Positions 24,990-64,000 of a stretch of DNA of 64,000 nt are shown here, in pieces. The DNA comes from Candidatus Micrarchaeota archaeon (GTDB lineage: Archaea; Micrarchaeota; Micrarchaeia; Micrarchaeales; CABMGC01): NCBI GenBank assembly GCA_021818925.1, contig JAKASU010000001.1:1478-65477 (forward strand), read 5' to 3'. The translations under genes and the position numbers were made by a program. The notes under the pieces are model-generated. The model did not search any database. It was not told the DNA's origin and saw only the letters and a program-made list of their open reading frames with translations. Each line of letters begins with the position of its first letter. The first letter of the stretch is position 1.

Positions 24990-25064
24990 GGGTCCGTAGC
25001 TCAGCTTGGACAGAGCGACACCGTCCTAAGGTGAGGGTCGCGGGTTCAAATCCCGCCGGGCCCG
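24990..25064 (+). tRNA. tRNA-Arg (anticodon CCU)
   Basis: The hand fold gives acceptor GGGTCCG/CGGGCCC, D stem GCTC/GAGC, anticodon loop GTCCTAA (CCU) and T arm GCGGG-TTCAAAT-CCCGC. There is one A-A mismatch at the top of the anticodon stem. Confidence 0.8.
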
Positions 25065-46713: not shown

Positions 46714-46799
46714 GCGGGGGTGGCAGAGTTTGGTCAAATGCGACAGGTTCAGGGCCTGTTACCCTAGTGGTTGCGTGAGTTCAAATCTCACCCCCCGCA
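46714..46799 (+). tRNA. tRNA-Leu (anticodon CAG), class II with a long variable arm
   Basis: The acceptor is GCGGGGG/CCCCCGC plus A, the anticodon arm is ACAGG-TTCAGGG-CCTGT and the T arm is GTGAG-TTCAAAT-CTCAC. It is 86 nt. Confidence 0.85.
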
Positions 46800-46990
46800 G
46801 ACCCTGCCTAAAATAGCTTATTTTTCGTCTGGATGGTGGGCATTTACGTGTAGAAGGAAAAATGACGCGGGACCGGAGTGGCTGAATCACACCGCGCATT
46901 CGCACCGAAGCGGCAATAGGCAAGCCTTCTTATTTAAGTCTTTTCTGATATATTCCATATTCTGAATCCTCACTGCAGGAATTGGTAACA

Positions 46991-48307: not shown

Positions 48308-49911
48308 TAACCGACTACCTCAAGAACATCAGGATATCGATCCTTCTAGTACTCATAGCACTGCTTCTCGTGCTTGACATACTCTTCGGCGGCCCAAACG
48401 GGCTTCATCTTGGAGTGGAGTTCATAGGCGGCACTCAGATACCGGTGCAGCTCCAGTCGAGCGTAAATCCAAGCACTATGAGCAGCCTTCTCACCATCCT
48501 GCAGGAGCGACTCTCCACCTTCGGGCTGAAGCAGATAACGGTAGAGGGAATCGGCAGCTCGGAGGTCTACGTCACCATACCTTCCGTATCTGGAACCGAG
48601 ATCAACAGCACCATATCAGTCATAGAGAGCCAGGGCGTCTTCCAGGGAGTCGTGAACGGCAATGAGGCGCTCAACGGCTCAGGCCTGCTCAGCGGAAGCA
48701 TAGGAGCGCAGCAACCGGTCATCTCCGCTGGCAACGTCTCTTGGGCGGTCAGTTTCTTCATAACCCAGCAGGCAGCTGTCAAGTTCTCAAAGGCGGTCTT
48801 CGGCCAGGCGAACCAGCCTCTCTACATGTTCCTTGACAGGCCGAGCAACTCGATCGTGCTCTTCAACGCATCGCTCTTCAAGACCGCCTCCGCTATAGGC
48901 GTGAACCAGACTGCAGAGCTGCAGGCGCTGCAGCGGTCTGCAAACTTCGGCAATCAGACGATACCAATAGAGATATACAACCCCGACCTCAGCAACATCG
49001 CCTCTGTGCAGGCCTTCTTCGAGGCGAACAAGGGCAGGTACAGGAGCGTAATAACAACAAGAGACTTGCCATCGTCCCTGGAATCAAACATAAGCTCGCT
49101 CAACTACTCCATCGATTACGTCACGCCGCAGAACATGACCCCCACCTTCGCTCCGGTTCTCACCTCATCATCGCAGAGCGTTGTCGTCAACGCATGGCCG
49201 GCGATAGGACTGCTCTCGTCCCCGATACTTAGCCCCGGGATAACGAATGGCACGGTGGGCCAGAGCTACCAGATAAGCGGCTTCGCACCAACCACGCTCT
49301 CAAAATCGGCGCAGCTGGCGTACGCGACCAACCAATCCACCCAGATAGCGAGCGTGCTCAGCGGCGGCGCGCTGCCCGTCCATGTTATAGTTGGCACACC
49401 GACCACGATACCGCCCACGCTGGGATCGCATTTCGAGCTGATCAGCGCAATCGCGCTGCTCGCTGCTATACTCGCCGTATCGCTGACCGTGGCGATAAGG
49501 TACAAAAAGGCGTTTCTTGTGGTGCCGATACTCTTCACCACGTTCGCCGAGCTTTTCATCATACTCTCTATAATAGGGCTGATAGGGACGATAGACCTCG
49601 CGGCTGTAGCCGGAATGATCGCGGTCGTTGGCACAGGCGTTGACGCTCAGATAATAATCACGGACGAGGTGCTTCATACCGGCGCCGAGCACACGCTCAA
49701 GCTAAAGCTCAGCAACGCGTTCTTCATAATCTGGGCAGACGCGGGACTTCTAGTGGTGGCGATGCTCCCGCTTCTCTTCTCAACCACGCTCATCACGATA
49801 ATCGGATTCGCCGAGTCGACGATACTTGGGGTGCTCTTCGGCGCGTTCGTGACTAGGCCGGCCTACGGCGCCATAATCGGCAGTCATTACTCGAAGCAGG
49901 AGCAAAAATGA
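48304..49911 (+). CDS. secD: Protein translocase subunit SecD
   Basis: Motifs are ..GLHLGVEFIGGT.. and ..IAVVGTGVDAQIIITDE... ATGA overlaps the secF stop. Confidence 0.8.
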   Translation: MITDYLKNIRISILLVLIALLLVLDILFGGPNGLHLGVEFIGGTQIPVQLQSSVNPSTMSSLLTILQERLSTFGLKQITVEGIGSSEVYVTIPSVSGTEINSTISVIESQGVFQGVVNGNEALNGSGLLSGSIGAQQPVISAGNVSWAVSFFITQQAAVKFSKAVFGQANQPLYMFLDRPSNSIVLFNASLFKTASAIGVNQTAELQALQRSANFGNQTIPIEIYNPDLSNIASVQAFFEANKGRYRSVITTRDLPSSLESNISSLNYSIDYVTPQNMTPTFAPVLTSSSQSVVVNAWPAIGLLSSPILSPGITNGTVGQSYQISGFAPTTLSKSAQLAYATNQSTQIASVLSGGALPVHVIVGTPTTIPPTLGSHFELISAIALLAAILAVSLTVAIRYKKAFLVVPILFTTFAELFIILSIIGLIGTIDLAAVAGMIAVVGTGVDAQIIITDEVLHTGAEHTLKLKLSNAFFIIWADAGLLVVAMLPLLFSTTLITIIGFAESTILGVLFGAFVTRPAYGAIIGSHYSKQEQK

Positions 49912-51659
49912 CTTCAGCCAGCTCCGCCGAACCGCACCATCCAAAAGAAAACACTATAAATAGACCTAACCATAGTTTTTCGGCAATCGTTATGTTTGCA
50001 GGGAAGTTCGCGCGCCACGGGAGAGGAAGCAAGGCCAAGACGTCAGGCCGTACCGGCCCACGCTGGTACTTGCTGCTAGTGGCAATCATAGCCTTGGGGC
50101 TACTCCTTTCCTATCTTATGTATTCCGGGCCTGATCCGTGGTACGACGACTCGATCTACATATTTTTAGCGCACGAGGCGCTGTCGGGCAACGCATCTTT
50201 TATTGGCAGCAGGTTCGCTTACGGATTCCTGAAGCTTTTTCCGCTTGCCGCCAGCTTTGGGCTGCTTGGTTACGGCAATTTTCAGGCAGTACTTCCAAGC
50301 GTTTTGGAATACGTTCTTCTCATCATCATGACCTTCCTGATAGGCAAGAAGCTTCAGGGTGAAAGGCTCGGCGTCATTGCCGCATTCCTTGCCGCGACCG
50401 CACCATTCGCCGTGTCAAACGCGACACGCGTGCTGCCCGACATAGTCACCGGCCTGGCGCTGTCCGTGTCCATATACCTCTTTCTGGCCAGCACCGATAC
50501 CAAGCACAGCGTTGTGCTGCCGATTCTTTTCGGAGCTTCTACAGCCCTCCCGCTTTTCTTCAACGAGGAGGGATTTGCCACAATGCTCTTCTCTTGGGTT
50601 TACGTAGCCTTCTTGCTGGTTTCAAACACGCTCAGAATTGGCGCAAGACGTGCGGTAACAAATGGAAGGACCGATGCCGCAGCAAGCGTAACTTTCAGAT
50701 TTGTGTCTTTTGCCGCAGTGGGTACTGTTGCATGCTTGTCCGCATACTTCATCGTATTCTACGTCTCACTTGGTTCCCCCTTCTTCGTCTTCACGCACTA
50801 CAACGCGGGCTTTTCGCCTCTCAACCCATTTTCCGAGGCATACACCCTGCTGTTTGGGAATTTCCTCAACGCTGGCACTTTCACACAGGACCTCTATCCT
50901 ATAGGCCCTCTGTCGCTTTTGGCGATGGCCGGCAGCGTGCTGTTCGCTATCAGGTCCGGAAGGCGCGGAAATTTCATAAGCTTCCTGAACTGGAGCTTTG
51001 TCATGTTTATGATCTTCGGCACAACGAGCCTTGCTGGAGGCTATCATCCAATCCCTGTTACTACACGGTTCTTTGGCATAGTGCTCTCTACTTTCTCTCT
51101 TCTTGCTGCTTTTGCGCTACTGAGTTTCTACGACTATGCTAAAAAAACATTCAGGAGACGCGCACCGTCTTATCCGGCAGCGCCTCTGATCGCCATGCTG
51201 TCGCTGCTCTTTGCGATAACGCTGGCCTGCTTACCGCTGTACGGAATGCTGATCCAGTCCAACCGCATAATCCTTCAAAACAACCAGGAGCTTTATCAGT
51301 CAACGAGATATGCGACAAGCGTAGCGCCAGCCGGAGAGCCGATAGCAGTCTACACGGACGCATTCGGCGGCTTCGGTTTCATACTGCCGCTGTTCCTTTC
51401 CTTCACCACCGGATTCAACGCAAGCATCACATACCAAAGCATAGTGGATTATGGCTCAAACAACACACTTACCAGTTGCGCGCTTGCAAGCGGTTCCAGT
51501 CCTTTTCTGATTGTCGAATACCAGAATGTAGGGCCGGCCGCAAGGGAGCAGATAGATGCGCAGGTAAGCGCCTGGCTATCCGATACCTGCACCGCCACCC
51601 TGCTGACCGAAATCAACCAGACATATATCTACTCGCTTTCAGGCTCAACGCAAGGGTAA
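49908..51659 (+). CDS. GT-C fold glycosyltransferase (PMT/ArnT-like), paralogue 2
   Basis: The first-loop motif is PWYDDSIY, and the protein is polytopic. ATGA overlaps the secD stop. The C-terminus is ..NQTYIYSLSG. Confidence 0.7.
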   Translation: MTSASSAEPHHPKENTINRPNHSFSAIVMFAGKFARHGRGSKAKTSGRTGPRWYLLLVAIIALGLLLSYLMYSGPDPWYDDSIYIFLAHEALSGNASFIGSRFAYGFLKLFPLAASFGLLGYGNFQAVLPSVLEYVLLIIMTFLIGKKLQGERLGVIAAFLAATAPFAVSNATRVLPDIVTGLALSVSIYLFLASTDTKHSVVLPILFGASTALPLFFNEEGFATMLFSWVYVAFLLVSNTLRIGARRAVTNGRTDAAASVTFRFVSFAAVGTVACLSAYFIVFYVSLGSPFFVFTHYNAGFSPLNPFSEAYTLLFGNFLNAGTFTQDLYPIGPLSLLAMAGSVLFAIRSGRRGNFISFLNWSFVMFMIFGTTSLAGGYHPIPVTTRFFGIVLSTFSLLAAFALLSFYDYAKKTFRRRAPSYPAAPLIAMLSLLFAITLACLPLYGMLIQSNRIILQNNQELYQSTRYATSVAPAGEPIAVYTDAFGGFGFILPLFLSFTTGFNASITYQSIVDYGSNNTLTSCALASGSSPFLIVEYQNVGPAAREQIDAQVSAWLSDTCTATLLTEINQTYIYSLSGSTQG

Positions 51660-51691
51660 AGTATCTGTTTGCGCAGATAGAAGTGAGCTAA

Positions 51692-52327
51692 ATGAAGCAC
51701 TGCCCGATATGCAACAGGACAAGCGAGGAGGCTAGGTTCTTCGGCGAGTTCTGCGAGTTCTGCCTCGGCGGCAAGCTGAGGGAGAAGCTGGCCGCTGAGG
51801 TGGATGTTGAGGTCTGCAGGGACTGCGGCAGGGTGAAGGTTGCGGGCGCGTTCGTCCCTTACACCGAAAGCAGCCTGGAGCGCCTGCTTTCCATAAAGTT
51901 CAAGCCCCACACTGTAAAGATGATACACATCAGCAACGGCATTGCAAGGATATCGGTGGGAGACGAAAAGCATCAGGGATTGAGCATAGATTACAACGTG
52001 CACCTCAAGCCCAGGAAAGTCCTCTGCGATGACGACGCGAAGAAGCGCGCAGGCTACTACGAGGCGGTGGTGCAGCTGCGCGGCGAAGCCGGCAGGGTTG
52101 AGAGGGTGGCAATGTCGCTCTCGAAGTACCTGGAAAAGAACGGCGCCTTCGTGACAAAGGTGGAGAGCAAGGAGCACGGCATCGATGTGTATACGAGCGA
52201 CAAGAAGGTCGCGTTCGCATTCATAAGCTCAAGGCACTTGAAGTTCAAGGGCTCGTTCGAGCTGCACGGCGAGAAGCGCGGCCGCCGCCTGTACAGGAAC
52301 ACGTATTTTATAACCCTTCCAAAATAG
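51692..52327 (+). CDS. NMD3-family protein (archaeal)
   Basis: It has N-terminal Cys pairs (CPICN..CEFC..CRDCG) and YYEAVVQLRG. Confidence 0.6.
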   Translation: MKHCPICNRTSEEARFFGEFCEFCLGGKLREKLAAEVDVEVCRDCGRVKVAGAFVPYTESSLERLLSIKFKPHTVKMIHISNGIARISVGDEKHQGLSIDYNVHLKPRKVLCDDDAKKRAGYYEAVVQLRGEAGRVERVAMSLSKYLEKNGAFVTKVESKEHGIDVYTSDKKVAFAFISSRHLKFKGSFELHGEKRGRRLYRNTYFITLPK

Positions 52328-52336
52328 CAGTAAGCG

Positions 52337-52588
52337 TCATGCGGCGTAGAGCACAACCTTCCATATCCACATGTATGGCGTAAAGCCGGCAAGAGAAGGG
52401 TATACTGAAGGGTAATAAACAACGCGCATGTTCTTGCAGGGGAGCTGACCACTAGAATCTACCTGTATGTAATATGCGCCTTCCGTCACATTGCTGCAGC
52501 CTGCGGACATGTTGAAAGTAACGAAGCGGTATCTGTAGCCGGTGTAGCTATACAACGCCAAGGCCGCCCACTGTATTTGACGCTTCAA
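52337..52588 (-). CDS. Small hypothetical ORF downstream of a GT-C gene (weak)
   Basis: The ORF is 83 aa, rich in Tyr and Cys, and faintly resembles the C-terminal soluble tails of the GT-C paralogues. It has no independent support. Confidence 0.2.
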   Translation of the reverse strand: MKRQIQWAALALYSYTGYRYRFVTFNMSAGCSNVTEGAYYIQVDSSGQLPCKNMRVVYYPSVYPSLAGFTPYMWIWKVVLYAA

Positions 52589-52713
52589 TTTCGATTATCG
52601 GAATCAAGCCGAAGGCCCCTGCCGCAATGCGCAAGCGCGATGACGTATCTCATGTCATGCATCTAAGTCCATCTGTTGTTGCACATGTATTATACGTTGC
52701 CTCTACATCCACG

Positions 52714-54453
52714 TCATGCCTTGTAGTAGATGTTGCCTGTGAAGTCCGGGGCTACCGGGTAGAGATTCACAAGCGTAGAGTTCGCGTAGAGATCCGCATA
52801 GAGCGACAGGTCACCGCACTCAGAAGGGTTGTACGCCCAAGTCTCGTTTATGTTCCAGAGGTTATAGCCGTTTATGTACTGGATCGTGGCGTTGGTGGGT
52901 ATCACTAGGAATGTTTCGTTTGGTATGCTTGCGCACGTCGGCATAAAGGTGCCGCCGTACGCGCCGTCGTCGTACTGGCCTATGTTGATATTGCCCGGGT
53001 AGCCCAGGTAGAAGGGCATGTAGTAAGGTATCTCGCCAGGCGCATACACGCTTCTGACAGGCAGGTCTGAATGCTTTACCGCATTTGACATCGCTTTCAC
53101 GAATAGCATTGAGTTGTGATTGTATGCGTAGTAGTAGTAGTCGAGCGGGATGGAGGTGGCAAACAGCACCGCTAGGATCATCACGGCTGCCGCGGTCCGC
53201 CATAGTTTCCGCTTTCCGCGCGTTCTACCGTTGCCAAGCATGAAGCTCTCCAGCGCGATGCCCATGACCAGCACGATCATCGGAGCCGCCACTATTGTGA
53301 ACCTCATCAGCTTGTATATTGGGAAATAGTGGGTAACGCTCATGCTGCCAAACTCCATGTACGCCGCAAGGAACGAGGCAGCAGACAGCGCGAAGTACGA
53401 GCGCCTGTCCCTCTTCAGCAGCAGGTAGATTCCAGAGATGACTGCAGCATAACCGAAAAGCCCGACCTCGTTCTGGTTCAGCGAGTTGAGCGAGAATGTT
53501 GAGGCCAGCCAGTTAGATATCCCGCCAGCGGCGCCCTGCGGATTCAGATGCAGCAGCGGCGAAAGCACAGTGCCTGTGAAGTCGTATGGGAAGTAGCCAG
53601 AAAGGTAGAAAGTAAGGCTGGGGTTGGTGTAGAATATCTCGTCGGGTCCGCCAGCCGCGCTGTAGTAGTTGCTCGTGAGCCCTATCTCGTAGAAGGGATT
53701 GCCGCCTGGCGAGAGCAGCAGGTTAACATAGCCCAGCGCCGCCATAGCGGTGAGCAGTCCGAGGATCACTCCGAGCGACCTGAAGTCGAATTCAATCCGG
53801 CGTGACCTTGCAGACCTATAGACAGCGTCGAGTAGAATGTAGACAGCATAGAAAAGCACGTACAGGTACGCCAACGGGTTGGCTAGCGTCCCAAGAAAGG
53901 CGAGAATGCCGGATATCACATAAGCCGATATGCTCTTCTTCTTTCGGCCGTAAACGAAGAAAAGCGCGGAAAGGCTCACAAACATCGCCAGCGGCAGCAT
54001 CGGCTCCGGGGTGCTGTTGTACTTCAGTATTAGCGGGTACAATGAAAACAGCAGCGCCGAGAGCAGGCCGGCCCTGGGCGTGTACAGTTCCCTGCCTATG
54101 AGGTAGACCGCGATTATGGCTATGAGATAAGACAGCAGAGACCAGGCGGCCGCCCCTATATCGGTGTATCCGAATAGCCCGATGAATGCGGCAAGCGGGT
54201 AATCCGCCATCAGCCTTATCGAGAATATGTTTATCGATTCGCTGAACGTTCCGCTGAGTATGCTTGGGGCATACTGTGTGTATGACGCATCGTCTCCGTA
54301 GAAGCTCGGCCCCTTGATCAGCAGCAGTGAGAGCACAAGCCCGAAGATCAGGATTGCAGCAAGGTACTGCGTCTCGCGTTTAGACAGGCAGCCGGCCGCA
54401 CCGGCCCAGAATCTTTCCAGAAACCCCTTTCTCATGCAGTTCCACCAACGCAT
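52714..54453 (-). CDS. GT-C fold glycosyltransferase (PMT/ArnT-like), paralogue 3
   Basis: The first-loop motif is FYGDDASY, and the protein is polytopic. The C-terminus is ..FTGNIYYKA. Confidence 0.7.
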   Translation of the reverse strand: MRWWNCMRKGFLERFWAGAAGCLSKRETQYLAAILIFGLVLSLLLIKGPSFYGDDASYTQYAPSILSGTFSESINIFSIRLMADYPLAAFIGLFGYTDIGAAAWSLLSYLIAIIAVYLIGRELYTPRAGLLSALLFSLYPLILKYNSTPEPMLPLAMFVSLSALFFVYGRKKKSISAYVISGILAFLGTLANPLAYLYVLFYAVYILLDAVYRSARSRRIEFDFRSLGVILGLLTAMAALGYVNLLLSPGGNPFYEIGLTSNYYSAAGGPDEIFYTNPSLTFYLSGYFPYDFTGTVLSPLLHLNPQGAAGGISNWLASTFSLNSLNQNEVGLFGYAAVISGIYLLLKRDRRSYFALSAASFLAAYMEFGSMSVTHYFPIYKLMRFTIVAAPMIVLVMGIALESFMLGNGRTRGKRKLWRTAAAVMILAVLFATSIPLDYYYYAYNHNSMLFVKAMSNAVKHSDLPVRSVYAPGEIPYYMPFYLGYPGNINIGQYDDGAYGGTFMPTCASIPNETFLVIPTNATIQYINGYNLWNINETWAYNPSECGDLSLYADLYANSTLVNLYPVAPDFTGNIYYKA

Positions 54454-54474
54454 ATCTTACCCATCGCATTTTAT

Positions 54475-56295
54475 TTACTTATACAGCGGCGTGCCGTTCT
54501 TGTAGCTCAGAATCTTGTATATCGCAAACGTGTAATTCCAGCCAAACTTGTCGTAAGGCGCTGTGACTATCGGGCTCATCGTGTAGTTTGACATTATCTT
54601 TGAGCATCCGGGTGTCGTGTTGTCCAGCTTGTACCCGCCTGTGTTTATGACGCAGTCCAGGCTGTACTCGAAGTAGAGGCATCCGTGCGAAAGGTTGAGC
54701 AGCTCGCTCTTCAGGGGCGGAATGAGTATCCAGTCCGCATAAATGTTGCTCACGTTCAGCACCTGCCAGAGCGGAGGCTCGTAGGTGAGCACGAAGCAGC
54801 TGCGCGGGATGAGCGTGTAGTTGCCCTCTATTATCTGCTGCTGGAAGCGCTCTGCCGAGAACGGGTAGATGTCCTGGGGCGGTTTCATCACAGTCGTGGT
54901 GATCTCGAACGCTAGGTCTGACACCATGAACACAAGCAGCGCCAGGGCCACGAGCATGATCAGCCTTTTCCTGTTTTTCGCTTTTCCAGCCCCTGCCGGC
55001 CTCTTCCTCCTCTTTGCGGCTTTCTTCCTCGCTGCGGAAAGCATGCCCACTATGCCGCTCGACGCCAACATTGCAACAGCGGGGAACGCAAGCATGAAGT
55101 ATCTGACGTCGTCTCCCGCGCTGTACAACACGCTGCCGCCGTAGTAAGAGGTGTAGAATAAGAAAACGATCGAGAACCAGAACAGGAATATCGCCGCTTC
55201 ACGGGTCTTCCCGCCCCTCCAAAGAACTATGGCCCCTATTGCGGCCAAGAGCGTGTATGCTAGGGGAAACTCTATGTTGTAGGTCTCCCAGCCCGTAGGC
55301 GTCAGTATGCTGCCGTAAGCGCCGAACCAGAACAGCACGTTGACCGGAGCATTCGCGACCAGGTTGCCCAGGGAGATCCTGGACTGGCCCTGCTGCGCGC
55401 CAAAGTTGTTCAGGTTCCAGCTGTTGTATACGAATATCAGCTGGGGCAAGATCAGCAAAGCCAGGAAGATGACAAGGCCCACAACGGTCATGCGATGCTT
55501 CTTCCCCTGCTTCCCGATCAACTCCCGTCCGAGCGCCAAGAAGATCGCGAGCGCTATCGGCAGAATCAGTATTGCGTCGACCTTCATTATCATGGTGTAG
55601 GCGATTGCCACGCACGCAGCTATTCCGACAACCTTCCTCTTCCCACTCAGGTATGTTAGAAGCAGCGACACCGCAAGCATGAAGACTGTCAGCGTAGGCG
55701 TGTCTAGTATCGTGGATCTGGAAAAGGTGAGGAAGAGCGGGGTGAACGCGAAGAGCGCGGCCGCAACAAGCGCGGCGTCTCCGTTGTCGAGCAGCATGAG
55801 CGCAGAGTAGAAGACCAGCGCTATGGTTATGCACGAGAGCAGCAGCACGAGGTTGAATCCTGTGCCGAAGCCGATGCCGAAGATCAAGAACGCGACGCTC
55901 AACATCGTGGCCCACCCGGTGGGCTGCTGCAGCAGCCCTGCGGTGCCGGCGACGCAATGCGGTTCCAGGGAGAAACTGCATATGCCCGCTATGTGGTCGT
56001 AGATCATCGCCTTAGCGATGCTCATGTGTATTGCTTCGTCGTTGTAAAGCTGCTGCGTCGCCGGGACAAAAAGAACCTCAACTACCAGGAACACGGCAAT
56101 TATCGCAGCCAAGACAGCAAGGCGCTTCCTTCCCGCAACGGCTGCGTTTTTGGCCACGTACTTGAACGCAATCGCGCTGGAAGCGACAAGCGCGATCAGC
56201 AGCCCAATGTCGTAATAGAAGTAGAACACCTCTCCGTTGCCGTATTCGAATATGCTCAGGAAACTGCTAAGCGCTTGGAGGAGAATATGGATCAC
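54475..56295 (-). CDS. GT-C fold glycosyltransferase (PMT/ArnT-like), paralogue 4
   Basis: The first-loop motif is LYNDEAIH and the C-terminus is ..FAIYKILSYKNGTPLYK. GTG 56295 overlaps the upstream stop (GTGA). The track start 56511 would run inside the upstream gene. Confidence 0.7.
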   Translation of the reverse strand: MIHILLQALSSFLSIFEYGNGEVFYFYYDIGLLIALVASSAIAFKYVAKNAAVAGRKRLAVLAAIIAVFLVVEVLFVPATQQLYNDEAIHMSIAKAMIYDHIAGICSFSLEPHCVAGTAGLLQQPTGWATMLSVAFLIFGIGFGTGFNLVLLLSCITIALVFYSALMLLDNGDAALVAAALFAFTPLFLTFSRSTILDTPTLTVFMLAVSLLLTYLSGKRKVVGIAACVAIAYTMIMKVDAILILPIALAIFLALGRELIGKQGKKHRMTVVGLVIFLALLILPQLIFVYNSWNLNNFGAQQGQSRISLGNLVANAPVNVLFWFGAYGSILTPTGWETYNIEFPLAYTLLAAIGAIVLWRGGKTREAAIFLFWFSIVFLFYTSYYGGSVLYSAGDDVRYFMLAFPAVAMLASSGIVGMLSAARKKAAKRRKRPAGAGKAKNRKRLIMLVALALLVFMVSDLAFEITTTVMKPPQDIYPFSAERFQQQIIEGNYTLIPRSCFVLTYEPPLWQVLNVSNIYADWILIPPLKSELLNLSHGCLYFEYSLDCVINTGGYKLDNTTPGCSKIMSNYTMSPIVTAPYDKFGWNYTFAIYKILSYKNGTPLYK

Positions 56296-58196
56296 ACGCT
56301 CCGCCTTCTTGCGCGTCCGCGCTGCCGACTGCGCCTTGATCTCATGAATATGTAAGCGTAGGCTGCCGCCAGAGCCGCGGTGAGCGCAACCAGCTCGTAG
56401 ACCGGGTTTATGCTGAGGTTTGATATGGCCGAGAGGCCGGAGGCGCAAGTATCGCGCGAGCTGTAGATGTAGGCGAACTGCCTGATTGCGGAGATGTTGC
56501 GCTGGCCGCATATTGACAGGTTGTATATCTCAACCGATTCCGAGAACGGCGTTCCTGAAGAGGAGAAGACCGAGAAGGCGCTGTTGTAGCCCTTCCCTAT
56601 GCTGAGGTTGTAAAAGTCGACGCCAAGCGAATCGCTTATATTGACTCCGAAATCCCTGGTGCCGGTCGGCTCAAGAGTCAGGTTGCTGAAGGTCACCCCT
56701 CCGGAATCTGCCACATCAATCCCATTCCCCCCAACGTTGCAGTTGCTTACGAAGACATTGCTGGAGTTGGTTACCACTATGCCTACAACTGTGTCGTTTA
56801 TCACCCCGCGCCTGCAGTTGATAGCTATGTTGCTTCCCCTGACAACGACTCCCACAGAGCATGCCGCGTTAACCAGCTGCGGTGTGGCCGGCGCAGCTAT
56901 GGGCTGAAGGACGCCGCCTACCATGTCATAGGTTCCGCTCCTGTTCACTATGATATCCGACATCGGTATTGTGAGGTTGTTTGCAAGCGCGCAGTATCCC
57001 AGCCCGAAGCTGAACGAAGGGGTCGTAGAATCCTGTATGAATGAGCCCAGGCCGGGGATGTATCCCTGCGCTGTCATGATGGAAGAGTTTATGCCCAGCG
57101 CTGCCTGCGACGTATAATTGACAAAGTAGAAGGCGGTGCCATTCGAGGTGAAGTTGGGCGCCGAGCCCGGGCGCACGAAGGCCTTGTACAGCACCGAACG
57201 GTTTCCCACTCCCCCCGAAACCGGATTGGTCGAGAACTCCGACGGGTCATACCTATACAGGTAGTCTGTGAAGTTCCAATTCTCATCCTGCGGAGGGATC
57301 GCAACCACATACCGTATCTGTACAGAGCTTGTGCCGTTGTCCGGGAGTATCTGGAAGTTGAACGGAGGGTATATGGGCTGTATGTACATGGGAGTGAGGT
57401 TGGTGTTCCTTGTTATGTTGAGCCTGTACGTCACCAGCTGGTCGTAGGCGAGGAAAGAGTAGTCTATCTCGTACGGATTGTATCTCACAATCCCGCTCTT
57501 TGAGAGCGTGTAATCCGACAGCGCAAAGACCTTGTACCCCTTTATCTGCCCGTAGCGCGTGGTCGAGTAGTTAGTGGGTATGTTGCTCTGCGCCATGTTG
57601 TATGCGCCCGCTGGCACCCTCTTCTGTAGCGCAGAAAAGACGCTGCTGAAGTTATTGATGAAGAACTCGTTCATCTGCAGCTCTGTGTTGTTGTATTTGA
57701 AGGTGCCGTTAAGCAGCGGAAATATGTACGAGAATCCTGCGGCTCTTGAGCCGAAAGCGCCTGTGCTGTAGCCGAAAGGCTCGAACACGTTCACGCGCAG
57801 GTAGTGCATGACCGTTATGTTTGCGCCGCTGCCTTCAAACGTGGGCGCGAATTTCGGGTTGTCGGAGCCCATTATGTACAGGCTGGTGCGATTGCCGAGA
57901 GTGATGCTGGGCCCGTCTACCGTGCAGTTGCGCAGGTAGACGGCGTAGTCTCTGCCTTCGGCCACAACCTGCGAGTTGGAGCCTATTGTTGCGTTGCTGT
58001 TGCACGCTACTCCGCTGTTGGACACGCCGCTGTCAAACATCACATTGAGCTGACTGCAGTCGCTTCCGGAGAAGTTGTACGTCTGGTTGCTCGAGCTCAG
58101 TACGGCTGTGCACGCTTGCGAGGCGCCAACGCTCTGCGCCCTTAGGATAAAAGTCAGTAAGAGCGCTGACAGTATTAGCAAATGGCGTCCTTGCAA
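56292..58196 (-). CDS. Secreted, C-terminally anchored right-handed beta-helix (PbH1-like) protein
   Basis: It has a signal peptide ending ..ILRAQSVGA. Beta-helix repeats read ..VVVRGSNIAINC..GIVVTNSSNVFVSNCNV..GIDVADSGGVTFSNL... The C-terminal TM plus Arg-rich tail is present. I counted 29 N-X-S/T sequons by hand. Confidence 0.7.
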   Translation of the reverse strand: MQGRHLLILSALLLTFILRAQSVGASQACTAVLSSSNQTYNFSGSDCSQLNVMFDSGVSNSGVACNSNATIGSNSQVVAEGRDYAVYLRNCTVDGPSITLGNRTSLYIMGSDNPKFAPTFEGSGANITVMHYLRVNVFEPFGYSTGAFGSRAAGFSYIFPLLNGTFKYNNTELQMNEFFINNFSSVFSALQKRVPAGAYNMAQSNIPTNYSTTRYGQIKGYKVFALSDYTLSKSGIVRYNPYEIDYSFLAYDQLVTYRLNITRNTNLTPMYIQPIYPPFNFQILPDNGTSSVQIRYVVAIPPQDENWNFTDYLYRYDPSEFSTNPVSGGVGNRSVLYKAFVRPGSAPNFTSNGTAFYFVNYTSQAALGINSSIMTAQGYIPGLGSFIQDSTTPSFSFGLGYCALANNLTIPMSDIIVNRSGTYDMVGGVLQPIAAPATPQLVNAACSVGVVVRGSNIAINCRRGVINDTVVGIVVTNSSNVFVSNCNVGGNGIDVADSGGVTFSNLTLEPTGTRDFGVNISDSLGVDFYNLSIGKGYNSAFSVFSSSGTPFSESVEIYNLSICGQRNISAIRQFAYIYSSRDTCASGLSAISNLSINPVYELVALTAALAAAYAYIFMRSRRSRQRGRARRRSV

Positions 58197-58468
58197 TCAC
58201 GCACCCCGCATCTCATCCATGTGACATCCTCCCGCCCCTAAAAGCGTGGGCTTCCCTGTTTGTTTTTATGGAAACGACTTGGAGAGTATGTTCTCGTTTC
58301 CCCGCCGTTTATTTCAGCCTTCAGATTATTAGGTTTTTCGCAGTATCTGCGGCCAAGCCCGTCTCCATTTTTCACTCTCGCTTTCATCCACTGCTGAAGC
58401 GCGTGTGGTTTCCAGTTCCGAAGGTTTTAATCTCTTTTCTCGCTGTATTCCCGCCTGCGCTTATCCAA

Positions 58469-58476
58469 TTTAAATA
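58469..58476. promoter_or_regulatory. TATA-box-like TTTAAATA upstream of the DUF1761 gene
   Basis: The sequence aatttaaata is near-palindromic and lies about 22 nt upstream of GTG 58498. Confidence 0.4.
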
Positions 58477-58497
58477 GATTATGCTCCAAACTCCACT

Positions 58498-58905
58498 GTG
58501 TTCGAGTTATCGATAAATTTGGCCGCGGTCTTGGTTGCCGCCGCCGCCGCAACGGTCTTCAGCGCAGCCTGGTACTCGCAGCGGCTACTTGGCGTAGCGT
58601 GGCTCAAAGAAGTCGGGAAGAGCTCGGCGGAGATCAAGAAAAAGATGCATACGAAACTTGCGGCCGCCTTCGCCACAGTGCTTATAACCTCTGGCGTACT
58701 TGACGTATTCATCAGGTCTGTCGGAGCCAACACAATCGCGCAGGGCATGCTTGTGGGCCTAGTCGCATGGTTCGGGTTCAGGCTTAGCAGGCACTGGATA
58801 GCCACGGTCTTCGGTACCTCCTCCGCAAAGCACTTCCTGCTAAACTCTTTTCACGATCTGATTCAGTTCCTGATTCTGGGGGCCGTCCTCGGGTTCATGG
58901 GTTAG
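58498..58905 (+). CDS. DUF1761 membrane protein
   Basis: The sequence ..VLVAAAAATVFSAAWYSQRLLGVAW.. shows the DUF1761 pattern with 4 TM helices. The exact start is uncertain (GTG 58498). Confidence 0.65.
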   Translation: MFELSINLAAVLVAAAAATVFSAAWYSQRLLGVAWLKEVGKSSAEIKKKMHTKLAAAFATVLITSGVLDVFIRSVGANTIAQGMLVGLVAWFGFRLSRHWIATVFGTSSAKHFLLNSFHDLIQFLILGAVLGFMG

Positions 58906-58911
58906 AGATTC

Positions 58912-60660
58912 ATGGCCACCCACCGCGCTGGAAAAACCCCCGTGATGTTTGCAACCAGCGTAAAAGGCATAGCCGCGCGTTTGACAAAATATCCCTATCT
59001 CGTCCTTCTTGTGCTCGTTTCGGCGCTCGGAATAGCAGTAAGCGCGGCAACAGTCTTGGGCCCCGGGCCCTTCCTTGACTTCTGGGACGATTTTTACTAT
59101 GTCTACTTCTCACACTACATAGCCGTGCAGGGGTTCCAGAACATAGTCAGGGCAAACTTTGTGACCGAATACCTGCTGTCAGGAATTCCTGCAATCTTCT
59201 TCAGGCTTTTCGGCGTGAGCCTTCTGAGCGAAGGGCTGTTCAGCATGTTCTGCCTTGTGGGCGTCATAGCGTGCATATTTCTTATTGCAAAGTTGCTGCA
59301 CAACGAGCTCTCCGGCATCATCTCGGCGCTCAGCTTCATCTTCATTCCGCTCGTGGCTGCGGAGGGAGCCGCTTCCGGTGATAACATGGCGGTTGCGTTC
59401 TTCTCCACTCTCGCTGTGCTCTTGCTGCTGCTTGGGGTCAAGGAGAAGAAGCGGTCTTATTACGCTCTTTCCGGGTTCGTCGGTGTTATCGGCGCGCTTG
59501 CAGGAAGCGCGCTCAACGTAACCATATTCCTCTTCCTGATACCATGCCTTCTCTACCTGCTGTTCAGGGACAGGGGCAGGGAGCAGAGGCTGCGGACAGT
59601 GTTCTTCTTCTCAGGCATACTGCTTGCCGTATTGGCAGCCATGGCCTTAGGCTACGTGCTGCAGTCAGACCCCCTGATCTTTTTTGCTACGAACTTCGGC
59701 CCAGGCAGCTACCCAGTTTCACAGTCGCCGGCATTCGCCAGAGCGGTCTCGGTCCTCTTTCCGCAGCAGCCAGCATACGGCAGCAATGCGCAGTTCTTCT
59801 GGCCGTACGAGCTCGGCTCCGGAGTCATCTACCCGAATGTGATAGGCTTCTTCGGGTACGCAATGGCCGCAAGCGCGATCTACCTGCTTATAAGGAAAAA
59901 GTACAAGGTTCTGGTTCCGCTGGCGTGGTTTGGCGTGCTCTTCCTCTACCTGGCATTTGGAAAGGACAGCCTGTCACTAGGCGGCTACATAATCTTTGTT
60001 CCGAGATTCCTGATAATCCTGATGCCGCCCCTGTCCATCACAATCGGGCTCGGGCTGAGCGTGCTTGCTGAGAGCCTGCTGCTAAACGTGAGAAGGCGCA
60101 GAGCAAGTTGGAGGTCTGCGGTCTCGGGCATTCTGATGCCCGCGCTCACTATAGCGTATGTTCTGCTCATAGCAAACTCGGTTCTTCTTATGCGGTTCCT
60201 GAATTACGCAAACTACGTACTCACCTACCAGACATCACAGACCGCAAGCGAACTTGCCTCGCTTCCAAAGAACGTTTCCATATACATTACCACCGGCATG
60301 TCCGGAGTTCCCGGTCCCAGCGGTTTCCCCACGCCGAACCCCTACGGCATAGACAACGTTACCGAATACATTCGGGACACAAGCTTCCTCTACTGGTTTT
60401 CCGTAGAGGATTATGCCGGATATGCAATCCCTATCAACTACTCTGCAATTTTCACCAACTGCAGCGCGATAAAAGGCGATTATGTTATAGGTGTAAACAC
60501 TACCGTGTATGAGAACGGCCTGCCTCTGTGCAGCAACCTTGAGCCTGTCTTTTCTCCGCAACTACAGCAAGCATCGCAGACCGCTTACAGTCCTTACTAT
60601 ACTTACTATAGGTATGTAAAAGACAACGTGCTGTTCAGGCTCTACAAGAAGGTTTCATGA
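58912..60660 (+). CDS. GT-C fold glycosyltransferase (PMT/ArnT-like), paralogue 5
   Basis: The first-loop motif is DFWDDFYY, and the protein is polytopic. The C-terminus is ..VLFRLYKKVS. Confidence 0.7.
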   Translation: MATHRAGKTPVMFATSVKGIAARLTKYPYLVLLVLVSALGIAVSAATVLGPGPFLDFWDDFYYVYFSHYIAVQGFQNIVRANFVTEYLLSGIPAIFFRLFGVSLLSEGLFSMFCLVGVIACIFLIAKLLHNELSGIISALSFIFIPLVAAEGAASGDNMAVAFFSTLAVLLLLLGVKEKKRSYYALSGFVGVIGALAGSALNVTIFLFLIPCLLYLLFRDRGREQRLRTVFFFSGILLAVLAAMALGYVLQSDPLIFFATNFGPGSYPVSQSPAFARAVSVLFPQQPAYGSNAQFFWPYELGSGVIYPNVIGFFGYAMAASAIYLLIRKKYKVLVPLAWFGVLFLYLAFGKDSLSLGGYIIFVPRFLIILMPPLSITIGLGLSVLAESLLLNVRRRRASWRSAVSGILMPALTIAYVLLIANSVLLMRFLNYANYVLTYQTSQTASELASLPKNVSIYITTGMSGVPGPSGFPTPNPYGIDNVTEYIRDTSFLYWFSVEDYAGYAIPINYSAIFTNCSAIKGDYVIGVNTTVYENGLPLCSNLEPVFSPQLQQASQTAYSPYYTYYRYVKDNVLFRLYKKVS

Positions 60661-60796: not shown

Positions 60797-60833
60797 CATT
60801 AGTAATGCAACTTAGCATAGGGTCAGTGCTAAC

Positions 60834-63800
60834 ATGCCGAAAAGGTCAGTAAGGCGCAGGACTGCAGGCGGGCGCAGGGGAGTCAAAAAGGCGCAGTCGG
60901 CACTGGAGTATCTGCTTACTTACAGCTGGGCCATACTGCTTGTGGCAATCGTTGTATCGGTTCTCTATCTCTTCGTGTTCGCTCCATCAAACATAACCCC
61001 CAGCAGCTGCATCTTCACAGGCGGCACGTACTGCCAGGACGTTGTCTTCAGCTCCAACAGCGCAGGCACAAGCATGGCACTCTTCCTGACCAACACGCAG
61101 ACGTACGCGATAGCAAACCCGGAGGTTACGCTCAACTACAGCGGCACATCCACCACGTCCTCGTGCTCGCCGAGCCTGGTTCTGCAGGGAGGCGCGATAA
61201 TCTGTAATGTCAATGTGGCTATAAAGGCGATCTCTCTGGGTTCGCTGGCTTCGGGAAAGATAGTGCTCAGCGCAATACCGTGCCCGAGCGCCGAGCTGAG
61301 CGCATGCTCCTCGGGCCAGAGGCAGTCGTACACAGGATCGTTCAACACCCACGTCTCGCCGCTACTCTCATCAACGCCATCATCGATCAAGGTAACGGTA
61401 CTTAACAGCACCCAGGCAGCGAACGGCAACAGGGATCTTATAACCGCTACCGTCCTGCTTCTAGGCAACCCTATAGGCGGCGCCTCGATAAGCTTCACCG
61501 AGTCGAACACCTTCGCGACCCTGGGACCCAGCGCCACCACCTCCGGGAGCAACGGCCAGGGATATGCATACATCTCGAGCACGCAGAGCGGCAACACCAT
61601 AGTAACAGCCACGTTTGCGGGCCAATCCGACACCGTGCCAGTAAGCTTCGTCGCACCCGCTCTGACCACAATAAGCATCGGCCAGGATGTTATCAATACC
61701 GTATGCTCCGGAAACAGCGGCACGTATGTCATTACGATAGACGGCCAGAGCTATTCCTGCTCGCAGCTCCCATTGCACTTCTCATACAGCCCCGACACCC
61801 AGCACACCTACGCATGCATCTCCCCGATACCCGGGCCCGCAGGCACGCAATATGTGTTCAGCTCGGTCAGCGGATGCGGCGTCTCAGGCGGCCAGTCAGG
61901 AACGTTCACGGTGGGCGGCTCAGGCTCGAGCTGCTCGATAAACTGCGAGTACCAGACGCAGTACTCTCTTGTCGACTCCGCAAGCCCCAGCAACGGAGGC
62001 AGCGTCTCTCCTGCAGGCCAGTTCTACAACTCCGGCCAGAGTGTGGGGATAACCGCCACCCCGGCTTCCGGATACGGATTCGTTAGCTGGTCAGGAACAG
62101 GCTCAGGCAGCTACAGCAGCACAACGTCAACCACGGGCACAATCACGCTCAACGGGCCGATAACCGAGGTCGCAACATTCGTACTGCTTACCACGATCAC
62201 CAACGCCGCGACCAACGCCGCGACCAACGCCGCGACAACCGTCACCAACGCGGTCACAAACGCGGTCACCAACGCCGCGACCGCAGTCACCAACGCGGTC
62301 ACAAATGCGGTCACCAACGCGGTCACAAATGCGGCTACCTCAATAACCAACGCCGCCACCAATGCCGCGACCAACGCAGCCACCAGTGTAACGGTCATAA
62401 CCAACGCAGTCACCAACGCCGCAACCAACGCCGCCACCAACGCCGCCACAAACGCGGCCACCAGTGTAACTGTCATAACCAACGCAGTCACCAACGCCGC
62501 AACCAACGCCGCCACCAACGCCGCCACAAACGCGGCCACCAGTGTAACTGTCATAACCAACGCAGTCACCAACGCCGCAACCAACGCCGCCACCAATGCC
62601 GCGACCAACGCAGCCACCAGTGTAACGGTCATAACCAACGCAGTCACCAACGCCGCAACCAACGCCGCGACAACCGTCACCAACGCCGCGACAACGGTCA
62701 CCAACGCCGCGACAACCGTCACCAACGCCGCGACAACCGTCACCAACGCCGCGACAACCGTCACCAACGCCGCGACAACCGTCACCAACGCCGCGACAAC
62801 CGTCACCAACGCCGCGACAACGGTCACCAACGCCGCGACAACGGTCACCAACGCCGCGACAACGGTCACCAACGCAGCCACCAACGCAGCCACCAACGCA
62901 GCCACCAACTTTGCAACTGCTCTGAGCAACAACTGTGGCGGAAGCACACCTTGCTGCGAGACAGACTCTAACCTAGATTGCGGCTACTCCAACACCTGCC
63001 CTGCGGGCTGGGCCTGCCCCGGATCCAGTGGTACGTGCGTCAATGATTTCCTGTACAGTGGAGGCAACTGCTACCTTTACAGCTGCAGCTATCATCCTGG
63101 AGGACTGACCGGCGAGATAGTGTACTGCACCTCAACCACAGCGGTCACCAACGCCGCCACCTCTGTCACCAACTCAGCCACCCACACAACCAACGCCGCC
63201 ACCCACACAACCAACGCCGCCACCCACACAACCAACTCGGCCACTAGCACAACCAACTCGGCAAGTAGTTCTGGTTCCGTGTACGGAAATGCCACGATAT
63301 CCCTTGCAAACGGCACAACGATAAATGCGTCAGACGTCAGGGCGGGGATGGTGCTGCTGTCTTATGACTTTGTCGATCATAAGCTGGCGCCTTCGATAGT
63401 GGCCGGTACGTACGCAATCCAATCAACGAACAGGTACCTGTTCAACCACAACCTGAGCGTGGACGGCAGCGAAGTGATGCTCATAAACGGTGTGTGGGCT
63501 CGCGCGTCCACGGCGAAGGTGGGAGACACGCTCTTCGACCCGCAGCTCAGCGACCCCAACGTGACGATAACTTCCATACAGGTGTTCAACTACACTACCC
63601 CAAGGACCGTCTACGATTTCGTGGGCTCGCCATTCAACAACTACATTGCGGACGGCTACCTGATAGATGTACTTTCAAGCTCTCCTAACTCCGTAAGCCC
63701 GCTCGGCATGGTTTCGCTGGCTGCAGGCGGGGCCGAGCCGCTGTACAAAGTAGCTATTGGCACCCTGGTTCTGGGCTATGATAATGAGACAGGCAAGCTC

Positions 63801-64000
63801 ATACCCACAGTTGTGACCGGCATCTATGCAAGGGTGTCTCCAAACGAGTACATAATAAACAACGGCGCTCTGCTAGCCGACTCAGGAGAGCTCGTGTACA
63901 CAAACAGCGGCTACAAGTATGTTGGCGATCTCAAAGTCGGTGACAAGCTTTACAACGCGCTTACGGGAACTTATGACAACATAACCAGCATATCGGTGAT
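60834..64000 (+). CDS. Giant surface protein, 3'-partial: class III signal peptide, pilin-like head, Ig-like and InlB-B-like domains, T-N-A repeats, 10-Cys module and two Hint-like modules
   Basis: This ORF is not in the track because no stop occurs before the window end. Manual translation from ATG 60834 is stop-free to nt 64000. The N-terminus is MPKRSVRRRTAGGRRGVKKAQSALEYLLTYSWAILLVAIVVSVLYLFVF. See the findings for the domain coordinates. Confidence 0.8.
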   Translation, partial: MPKRSVRRRTAGGRRGVKKAQSALEYLLTYSWAILLVAIVVSVLYLFVFAPSNITPSSCIFTGGTYCQDVVFSSNSAGTSMALFLTNTQTYAIANPEVTLNYSGTSTTSSCSPSLVLQGGAIICNVNVAIKAISLGSLASGKIVLSAIPCPSAELSACSSGQRQSYTGSFNTHVSPLLSSTPSSIKVTVLNSTQAANGNRDLITATVLLLGNPIGGASISFTESNTFATLGPSATTSGSNGQGYAYISSTQSGNTIVTATFAGQSDTVPVSFVAPALTTISIGQDVINTVCSGNSGTYVITIDGQSYSCSQLPLHFSYSPDTQHTYACISPIPGPAGTQYVFSSVSGCGVSGGQSGTFTVGGSGSSCSINCEYQTQYSLVDSASPSNGGSVSPAGQFYNSGQSVGITATPASGYGFVSWSGTGSGSYSSTTSTTGTITLNGPITEVATFVLLTTITNAATNAATNAATTVTNAVTNAVTNAATAVTNAVTNAVTNAVTNAATSITNAATNAATNAATSVTVITNAVTNAATNAATNAATNAATSVTVITNAVTNAATNAATNAATNAATSVTVITNAVTNAATNAATNAATNAATSVTVITNAVTNAATNAATTVTNAATTVTNAATTVTNAATTVTNAATTVTNAATTVTNAATTVTNAATTVTNAATTVTNAATTVTNAATNAATNAATNFATALSNNCGGSTPCCETDSNLDCGYSNTCPAGWACPGSSGTCVNDFLYSGGNCYLYSCSYHPGGLTGEIVYCTSTTAVTNAATSVTNSATHTTNAATHTTNAATHTTNSATSTTNSASSSGSVYGNATISLANGTTINASDVRAGMVLLSYDFVDHKLAPSIVAGTYAIQSTNRYLFNHNLSVDGSEVMLINGVWARASTAKVGDTLFDPQLSDPNVTITSIQVFNYTTPRTVYDFVGSPFNNYIADGYLIDVLSSSPNSVSPLGMVSLAAGGAEPLYKVAIGTLVLGYDNETGKLIPTVVTGIYARVSPNEYIINNGALLADSGELVYTNSGYKYVGDLKVGDKLYNALTGTYDNITSISV
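62346..62657 (+). repeat. 78-nt (26-codon) higher-order repeat, about 4 copies
   Basis: ACCAGTGTAAC(G/T)GTCATA recurs at 62382, 62460, 62538 and 62616, an exact 78-nt period. The unit encodes TSVTVITNAVTNAATNAATNAATNAA. Confidence 0.9.
62658..62867 (+). repeat. 21-nt repeat x10 encoding (TNAATTV)10
   Basis: ACCAACGCCGCGACAAC(C/G)GTC is repeated 10 times head to tail. The only variation is a synonymous C/G. Confidence 0.95.
63180..63242 (+). repeat. 21-nt repeat x3 encoding (THTTNAA/THTTNSA)
   Basis: ACCCACACAACCAACGCCGCC occurs at 63180 and 63201, with a variant at 63222. Confidence 0.85.

Follow-up and report, generated by a model that had tools for sequence, protein, structure and literature searches.

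Introduction

What do two consecutive Hint modules do at the extreme C-terminus of an archaeal surface protein when neither of them carries the block B motif that is common to inteins, PT-HINT, and Hedgehog? The question is raised by a 64,000-nucleotide stretch of DNA from a Candidatus Micrarchaeota archaeon (assembly GCA_021818925.1, contig JAKASU010000001.1, positions 1,478 to 65,477 of the forward strand), referred to here at its full length as the window. The window ends within an open reading frame (ORF) for a large surface protein, and an earlier note on this DNA had described the end of that ORF as two tandem, degenerate Hint modules, each beginning Ser-Leu-Ala. The peptides quoted in the note are present, in the frame and at the coordinates it gave, and its assignment of them to an archaeal surface protein is supported.

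The last ~270 aa of the window protein (the "cassette") consist of two Hint-fold modules in tandem, as judged by profiles and by structure prediction. The cassette almost certainly has the Hint fold, within which it forms a distinct new clade. It is probably a self-processing tail of a new kind, not an intein in decay or a module for toxin release, and the protein that carries it appears from its sequence to be a type-IV-pilin-like surface adhesin of Micrarchaeota, predicted to be heavily glycosylated. The coordinates of the features are collected in Table 1.

Recognition of the Hint fold

Scans of the window protein with the Pfam and NCBIfam models yield no match above threshold in the Hint region. 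The closest Pfam profile is PT-HINT (pretoxin-HINT, PF07591), whose gathering score is 27.7 bits; the pair of modules scores 21.8 bits (E 2.3e-4) and the single modules 12.5 and 13.9 bits (E 0.18 and 0.065). Because these direct scans remain below threshold, the link to Hint domains had to be made through profiles and structure. The cassette region has 18 close homologues, which are already public under the NCBI annotation "Hint domain-containing protein" of Micrarchaeota. PT-HINT matches 17 of the 19 family members at E<=0.01 (best 4.4e-10), and several of the homologues pass the gathering threshold. When a profile made from the window region and the 18 homologues is compared with the PDB, all 12 matches are Hint-fold proteins (best E 1.2e-4), among them BIL2 of Tetrahymena, the bacterial intein-like (BIL) domain of C. 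thermocellum, inteins, Hedgehog, and Vint. Searched against 1.84 billion representative proteins, the profile finds 3242 matches, which include canonical modules (C-F-L-x-G-T...T-P-N-H-P...V-H-N-K) at E values down to ~1e-33.

Structure prediction points to the same fold. The AlphaFold2 (AF2) model of the window segment has a predicted local distance difference test (pLDDT) score of 76.5, and that of a complete homologous cassette (P0009), which includes the full module 2, has a pLDDT of 85. For both models the top Foldseek match is BIL2 (6y75; E 2e-9, TMt 0.78-0.80), and both match the C. thermocellum BIL domain (2lwy) with a TMt of 0.83-0.85 and a root-mean-square deviation of 1.8-2.2 Å. Further matches, all with a Foldseek probability of 1.00, are dozens of mini-inteins, Hedgehog (1at0/6tyy, with an E of only ~2-6e-4), and Vint (8r2c). 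Two of the checks that the earlier note had proposed are thus answered in favor of Hint: the PDB matches of the profile are Hint proteins only, and the AF2 models match BIL, intein, Hedgehog, and Vint structures. Among the features that define the Hint superfamily, the fold, the profile similarity, and a nucleophile at position 1 are present, and the Thr-x-x-His of block B is absent. Overall, the cassette lies closest to the bacterial intein-like and PT-HINT domains.

Register and catalytic positions

The register of the modules comes from a MAFFT alignment of family modules with nine canonical modules, which is essentially gap-free at the termini. Here the canonical Cys1 aligns with Ser 63276-63278 in module 1 (S-V-Y-G) and with Ser 63690-63692 in module 2 (S-V-S-P), in each case 8 residues upstream of "Ser-Leu-Ala", and a HMMER alignment to BIL2 agrees with this register. 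The sequence L-A-N-G-T occupies positions 10-14 and corresponds to the canonical M-A-D-G-S, not to C-L-A-x-G-T. Consequently, the two tandem Hint modules of the earlier note stand, but their starts do not: the bounds become 63276-63668 and from 63690 onward, instead of 63300-63671 and from 63714. The Ser of S-L-A, to which the nucleophilic role had been given, is not conserved: homologues have S/T/E/M/L there in module 1 and S/T/V/L/Y in module 2. The gap-free alignments and this variable column led to rejection of the S-L-A register.

Position 1 is Ser in 100% of the complete core-family modules (~60 modules, from proteins and 15 loci). It is encoded by TCA, TCG, TCT, TCC, and once by AGC. 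Since the codon varies and the residue is fixed, turnover has affected the DNA but left the amino acid unchanged.

Block B is changed in a regular manner. Its Thr-x-x-His, which occupies columns 63 and 66 of the hidden Markov model (HMM) as T and H in ~120 canonical modules, is replaced column for column by Asp-x-x-Glu, with Asp at the position of Thr and Glu at that of His. The Asp is found in 100% of core-family modules and the Glu in ~95%; the Glu is invariant in module 1, and the rare substitutes, Gln or Ala, occur in module 2 alone. The block F Asp (V-Y-D) is kept, with V-Y-E in module 2 of the window. At the penultimate-His position, module 1 has Asp (G-Y-L-I-D) and module 2 has Thr or Gly; the terminal Asn is gone, in agreement with the earlier observation that the terminal His-Asn is replaced. 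Neither module keeps a +1 nucleophile: across the family the residue after the I-D of module 1 is V/K/A/L/T, and module 2 ends at the stop codon.

The intein residues at work on the N-terminal junction are Thr B:7, His B:10, and Asp F:4 (PMC4031507). The block B TxxH is indeed missing from the cassette, as previously noted. However, "degenerate" does not describe what has taken its place, because Asp B:7, Glu B:10, and the Asp at the penultimate position of module 1 are conserved replacements. The conservation of the replaced block B positions themselves argues against simple decay. The modules of the family also differ from canonical ones in composition. They are free of Cys; Lys, Glu, and His make up 3.6, 2.7, and 0.9% of residues, compared with 7.9, 7.3, and 2.8% in canonical modules; and N-x-S/T sequons number 3.2 per module, compared with 0.8.

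The end of the protein

The window stops within module 2. An exact 60-mer scan of metagenome contigs for window sequence gave no match, and a lookup with the neighboring PMT_2 protein (58912-60660) led to three near-identical contigs (L021-L023; assemblies GCA_027364115.1, GCA_027342905.1, and GCA_027363995.1). In these contigs the gene matches the window exactly across the whole visible cassette and then continues for 26 residues (INKPFVVYELLTTPSGTFVYNGYVVG) to a stop codon, which answers the earlier call to inspect the sequence past nt 64000. Apart from the number of T/N/A repeats, the four assemblies differ only at a few residues in and just after the Cys-rich knot. The homologous ORF in 14 Micrarchaeota loci (GTDB genomes) likewise stops right after module 2 (...G-Y-L-I-T-stop). 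Because the stop directly follows module 2, there is neither a C-extein nor a toxin.

This result bears on two explanations of the cassette. The earlier note had drawn an analogy with pretoxin-HINT modules, which would here release a C-terminal polymorphic toxin, and PT-HINT is in fact the best Pfam family. However, the score of the window copy lies below the Pfam threshold, the catalytic His and the His-Asn are missing, and nothing follows: in every complete homologue, as in the near-identical contigs, the stop codon comes as soon as module 2 ends. Furthermore, the genes downstream encode membrane-anchored glycoproteins, which are not immunity-like. Release of a toxin is thus highly improbable, and this candidate was rejected on account of the stop codon directly after module 2.

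Still more improbable is the possibility that the modules are inteins, intact or in decay, with the ability to splice. Such an origin would explain the Hint fold and the Ser at position 1. However, there is neither a terminal Asn nor a +1 Cys/Ser/Thr, no C-extein follows module 2, no homing endonuclease is present, and the flanks are low-complexity linkers instead of a conserved host protein, while strong purifying selection argues against decay. As the block G residues and a C-extein are both missing, inteins were also rejected.

A proposed reaction at the N-terminal junction

The same two absences, of block G residues and of a C-extein, exclude splicing and C-terminal cleavage by sequence, leaving the N-terminal junction. 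Retention of a function there is favored by the strict Ser1 in both modules, by the alternation of Cys and Ser at position 1 in sister clades, and by the kept block F Asp. The cassette may therefore be an autoprocessing tail that acts at its N-terminal junction only, by means of a carboxylate active site; conservation in the sequences gives this reading about an even chance. Thus, where the earlier note had offered either an inactive fold or modules that cleave only at the N-terminus, the second is still preferred and the first becomes its main rival.

In the proposed autoprocessing, each module would keep only the first Hint reaction, at its own N-terminus. Ser1 would attack the preceding peptide bond (an N-to-O acyl shift at Gly/Ser-Ser1), with the Asp/Glu carboxyl pair assisting in place of Thr/His, and the Ser1 ester would then be hydrolysed or handed to another nucleophile. 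The outcome would be the freeing of the cassette from the mature protein, or of module 2 from module 1. A low-pH habitat is usually reported for these archaea. If the habitat of the source is assumed to be acidic, the carboxylate pair, the low content of His, Lys, and Glu, and the dense sequons would suit an active site operating extracellularly at low pH. The setting is that of a glycoprotein, with sequon-rich modules and with four or five PMT_2 glycosyltransferase genes and SecD/F genes next to the surface-protein gene. There is precedent for the missing parts, since one functional natural intein without His B:10 is known and type B BIL domains, which are without block G, only cleave (PMC4031507).

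Alternatively, the cassette could be a non-catalytic pseudo-Hint head, that is, a stable glycosylated unit for binding or docking at the distal end of a pilin-like protein. In this case a presumed Ser/Asp/Glu/Asp cluster would bind a cation or ligand, and the partner might be the X and Y proteins encoded downstream (see below) or the surface of a host. This is a serious possibility, though it falls somewhat short of an even chance, and a number of points count in its favor or against autoprocessing. Autocleavage is itself deduced from conservation, and the residue at -1, before Ser1, is not conserved (G/S/T/A/N/C/L). The canonical Thr/His and His-Asn are absent, and we know of no Asp or Glu version of His B:10 that has been shown to work. 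Some architectures are short, with P0008, P0010, and P0024 comprising little beyond the cassette and a short linker that joins it to a membrane anchor. In addition, paralogues that share the N-terminal scaffold of the window protein (P0171, P0172, P0174, and P0175; pilin-like start, Big_1, Flg_new_2, and S/T stalk) end in Kelch-like (propeller), NHL, or Gly-rich heads at the position of the cassette. Given these anchor-plus-cassette proteins and paralogues with other heads, the cassette could itself be a functional head. The operon with X and Y is conserved in 10-11 loci and also follows directly after the window gene in L021-L023. Finally, among Hint residues none is described as more conserved than His B:10 (PMC4031507), and active-site residues of BIL2 can bind metal (PMC8616854).

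However, a pseudo-Hint head leaves several features of the modules unexplained. The Ser at the nucleophile position is absolutely kept in both modules, at ~45% identity and despite synonymous codon turnover, and it is the very first residue of the domain after a low-complexity linker. The alternation of Cys and Ser at this position in sister clades is what would be expected of a nucleophile, and the block F Asp is also kept.

A sub-case of the favored autoprocessing is a transfer like that of Hedgehog or BUBL domains, in which an external nucleophile would attack the ester at Ser1 and resolve it. Candidates are lipids, glycans, and Lys residues of other proteins, such as a pilus subunit, X or Y, or a protein of the host surface. 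As a result, the cassette would be shed, and the adhesin would be left with a new C-terminus bound covalently to the cell, the pilus, or the host. The position of the cassette behind a secreted domain is that of the Hedgehog Hint domain, and BIL2, which the cassette models match best, attaches its upstream domain to lysines (PMC8616854). Moreover, the cassette is C-terminal on diverse surface proteins, like a sorting domain, and X and Y are conserved, membrane-anchored partners. Despite these parallels, such a transfer is unlikely, as the cassette has no recognizable region for recognition of an adduct, and little but a stub would be left of the short anchor-plus-cassette proteins after cleavage.

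Comparison with known Hint domains

In its working, the cassette would be most like type B BIL domains or Hog domains. BIL domains, those of type B in particular (Amitai et al. 2003, as summarised in PMC4031507; BIL structures 2lwy, 6y75/6tmm), share the Hint fold and provide the best structural matches. Like the cassette, they have an N-terminal nucleophile and no +1 nucleophile; type B is also without intein block G. They are present, often repeated, in secreted or variable surface proteins. In contrast, the cassette has Ser1 instead of Cys and Asp-x-x-Glu instead of Thr-x-x-His. It is also a fixed pair at the extreme C-terminus, archaeal (Micrarchaeota), Cys-free, and sequon-rich.

The Hog domain of Hedgehog (1at0, 6tyy) is likewise a C-terminal Hint domain behind a secreted part, and its reaction occurs at the N-terminal junction only, without splicing, as would that of the cassette. 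Hedgehog has a Gly-Cys-Phe junction, a Thr-x-x-His, and a sterol-recognition region. The cassette differs on all three counts: its junction has Ser1 behind a -1 residue that varies, its block B has Asp-x-x-Glu, and where Hedgehog has the recognition region it has a second Hint module.

Class 1 mini-inteins (Ssp DnaB 1mi8, Npu DnaE 4kl5) have the fold and the block F Asp in common with the cassette. Their block A presumably shares its register as well, if DnaB is taken to read C-I-S-G-D-S-L-I-S-L-A where the cassette reads S-V-Y-G-N-A-T-I-S-L-A. Unlike these inteins, the cassette is without His B:10, terminal Asn, and C-extein, and it is not inserted in a conserved host gene. The Tko CDC21-1 intein (PMC4031507) provides a precedent for activation of the N-terminal junction that survives the loss of His B:10 by means of compensating residues. 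However, the compensation in that case is a Lys outside the motifs of a cytoplasmic splicing intein, whereas the cassette has a carboxylate at the His position.

A second archaeal clade without the His is similar to the cassette in being C-terminal, with Cys or Ser at position 1 and with neither the block B His nor the His-Asn. That clade has a single module and Ser-x-x-Gln rather than Asp-x-x-Glu, and the identity is ~31%.

The cassette thus represents a Hint clade with a strictly selected nucleophile but with Glu at the position of His B:10, whose conservation is described in PMC4031507, and Asp at that of Thr. As such, it offers a natural test of Hint chemistry on carboxylates, possibly at very low pH, which would, if true, be of interest to intein enzymologists and to engineers who seek acid-triggered cleavage tags. 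The cassette also marks large, hypervariable, glycosylated pilin-like surface proteins of Micrarchaeota and, together with the conserved three-gene unit described below, may bear on how attachment structures are built or anchored. A transfer of the ester, if it occurs, would give an episymbiotic DPANN archaeon a prokaryotic counterpart, built on carboxylates, of Hedgehog cholesteroylation or BUBL conjugation. A literature search found no paper that ties Hint domains to Micrarchaeota or DPANN.

Family and relatives

The core family is confined to metagenome-assembled genomes (MAGs) of Micrarchaeota, two of which are labelled Marsarchaeota. The cassette is always C-terminal, on diverse surface proteins. 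The plan of the full-length proteins consists of a class III-like N-terminus, a variable body, an S/T/N-rich stalk, often a Cys knot, and then the cassette. The genome contigs scanned do not include the contig from which the window comes, and the best match among them is L005 (57%). The closest orthologue of the N-terminal half of the window protein is P0076 (67% identity), which has a single Ser1/Asp-x-x-Glu module; one module is also present in L018, and three are present in L013. Tandem duplication, which the earlier note had called unusual, proves to be common: the family-module HMM finds two modules in 80 of 166 proteins and three or four in 31, and some library proteins carry at least 7 matched stretches. 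The tandem arrangement is the rule in the core family and is common among its relatives.

With their shared scaffold and different ends, the surface proteins look like a modular family with exchangeable heads. Three of the scaffold-sharing paralogues come from one MAG.

The second His-less clade is characterized by a poly-Gly run, Cys1 (or Ser1), S-G-D-Q-P in block B, and FTVYD. It is always found at the C-terminus of the protein, on surface proteins (P0108, P0110, P0163, and others), and it includes MAGs of Thermoplasmata (L019 382-2331, L020 1790-3748). Thermoplasmata is the lineage from which hosts of Micrarchaeota are reported, and Micrarchaeota live attached to Thermoplasmatales hosts (PMC5498576). 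Related C-terminal archaeal clades have Cys or Ser at position 1 and are also without the His.

Public gene calls often shorten the proteins of the family to the cassette. P0004, for example, is called as 264 aa from an internal Met that replaces Val2; the L001 ORF (8657-10795), which begins with a class III-like N-terminus, encodes ~700 aa. Several contigs also break ~216 nt upstream, inside repeats.

Genomic neighborhood

Directly downstream of the cassette gene, nearly every locus (10-11 loci as well as L021-L023) contains genes for two paralogous, signal-anchored, sequon-rich proteins, X (~240-350 aa) and Y (~205-250 aa), for which a Pfam scan gives no significant match. The cassette gene, X, and Y form a conserved three-gene unit. 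At the window locus, X and Y would lie just past nt 64000. Upstream, the PMT_2 cluster (window 49908-60660) directly precedes the Thr-rich surface-protein gene; most of the genes of this cluster are absent from the syntenic locus L005.

Table 1. Coordinates of the surface protein, its Hint cassette, and neighboring genes (window positions unless a locus is named)
Feature	Position	Strand	Remarks
Partial surface-protein ORF	60834..64000	+	1055 aa in window; near-identical contigs add 26 residues (INKPFVVYELLTTPSGTFVYNGYVVG), then stop
N-terminus: basic stretch, then KKAQSALEYLLTYSWAILLVAIVV	60834..60989	+	resembles archaeal class III (type IV pilin-like) signal peptide and hydrophobic helix
Immunoglobulin (Ig)-like body as a whole	61410..62180	+	Big_1 and Flg_new_2
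Big_1 (Ig-like body)	61410-61652	+	Pfam E 7.4e-10, above gathering score
Flg_new_2 (InlB B-repeat-like; Ig-like body)	61980-62180	+	Pfam E 7.4e-13, above gathering score
Thr/Asn/Ala-rich stalk	62190..62909	+	~240 residues; TNAA/TNAV/TTVTNAA units
Cys-rich knot	62934..63128	+	13 Cys in 65 aa; between repeat stalk and Hint cassette
Second Thr/Asn/Ser-rich linker	63129..63275	+	ends ...SSSG directly before Ser1 of module 1
Hint module 1	63276..63668	+	131 aa, S-V-Y-G...G-Y-L-I-D; hmmsearch domain E 5.7e-51
Module 1, Asp (block B:7)	63462-63464	+	
Module 1, Glu (block B:10)	63471-63473	+	
Module 1, block F Asp of V-Y-D	63615-63617	+	
Module 1, terminal Asp	63666-63668	+	penultimate-His position
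Inter-module linker VLSSSPN	63669..63689	+	7 residues
Hint module 2	63690..64000	+	first 103 of ~129 aa in window; starts S-V-S-P; hmmsearch domain E 2e-24
Module 2, Asp	63879-63881	+	
Module 2, Glu	63888-63890	+	
Module 2, remainder	past window		block F V-Y-E ... N-G-Y-V-V-G-stop; read from near-identical contigs
X and Y in L021	15053-15841 and 15838-16515		
X and Y in L005	7399-8187 and 8197-8874		
PMT_2-type (dolichyl-phosphate-mannose protein mannosyltransferase-like) genes, four	49908-51659, 52714-54453, 54475-56511, 58912-60660		Pfam
634-aa ORF amid PMT_2 genes	56292-58196		no Pfam match
DUF1761 gene	58498-58905		
SecF/SecD-like genes and NMD3 homologue	46982-49911, 51692-52327		upstream of cassette gene; syntenic with L005
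tRNA genes Pro-TGG, Arg-CCT, Leu-CAG	1871-1943, 24990-25064, 46714-46799		in window

Architecture of the surface protein

The reading frame that includes nt 63300 opens at 60816, and from an ATG at 60834 it continues without a stop to the end of the window, giving one uninterrupted partial ORF with at least 1055 aa visible. The N-terminus of the window protein contains KKAQSALEYL followed by a hydrophobic helix, a possible counterpart of the Q-x-S-x-E-x-x-x-L type of pilin motif. A Q-[ST]-A-[IL]-E-Y-L motif and a transmembrane helix are shared across the full-length homologues. By this motif the protein resembles a pilin. A Pfam scan of the N-terminus matches no class III signal or pilin model; the assignment of a class III signal follows the motif and Pfam PF04021, which we take to be the corresponding family.

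The coding DNA of the stalk consists of tandem repeats with periods of 12, 21, and 78. Taken together, the tandem DNA repeats at 62190-62909 and 63136-63257 have periods of 12, 21, 57, and 78, with matches of up to 95%. Repeat copy number varies among the four near-identical assemblies, whose proteins come to 954, 1006, 1039, and ~1081 aa; these differences in stalk length are either real variation at the strain level or the result of assembly collapse. For the Cys-rich knot, a Pfam scan returns only a CPW_WPC match at chance level; knots resembling it precede the cassette in L001, P0022, and P0076. An antisense ORF (62111-62947, 278 aa) is probably a by-product of the stalk repeats.

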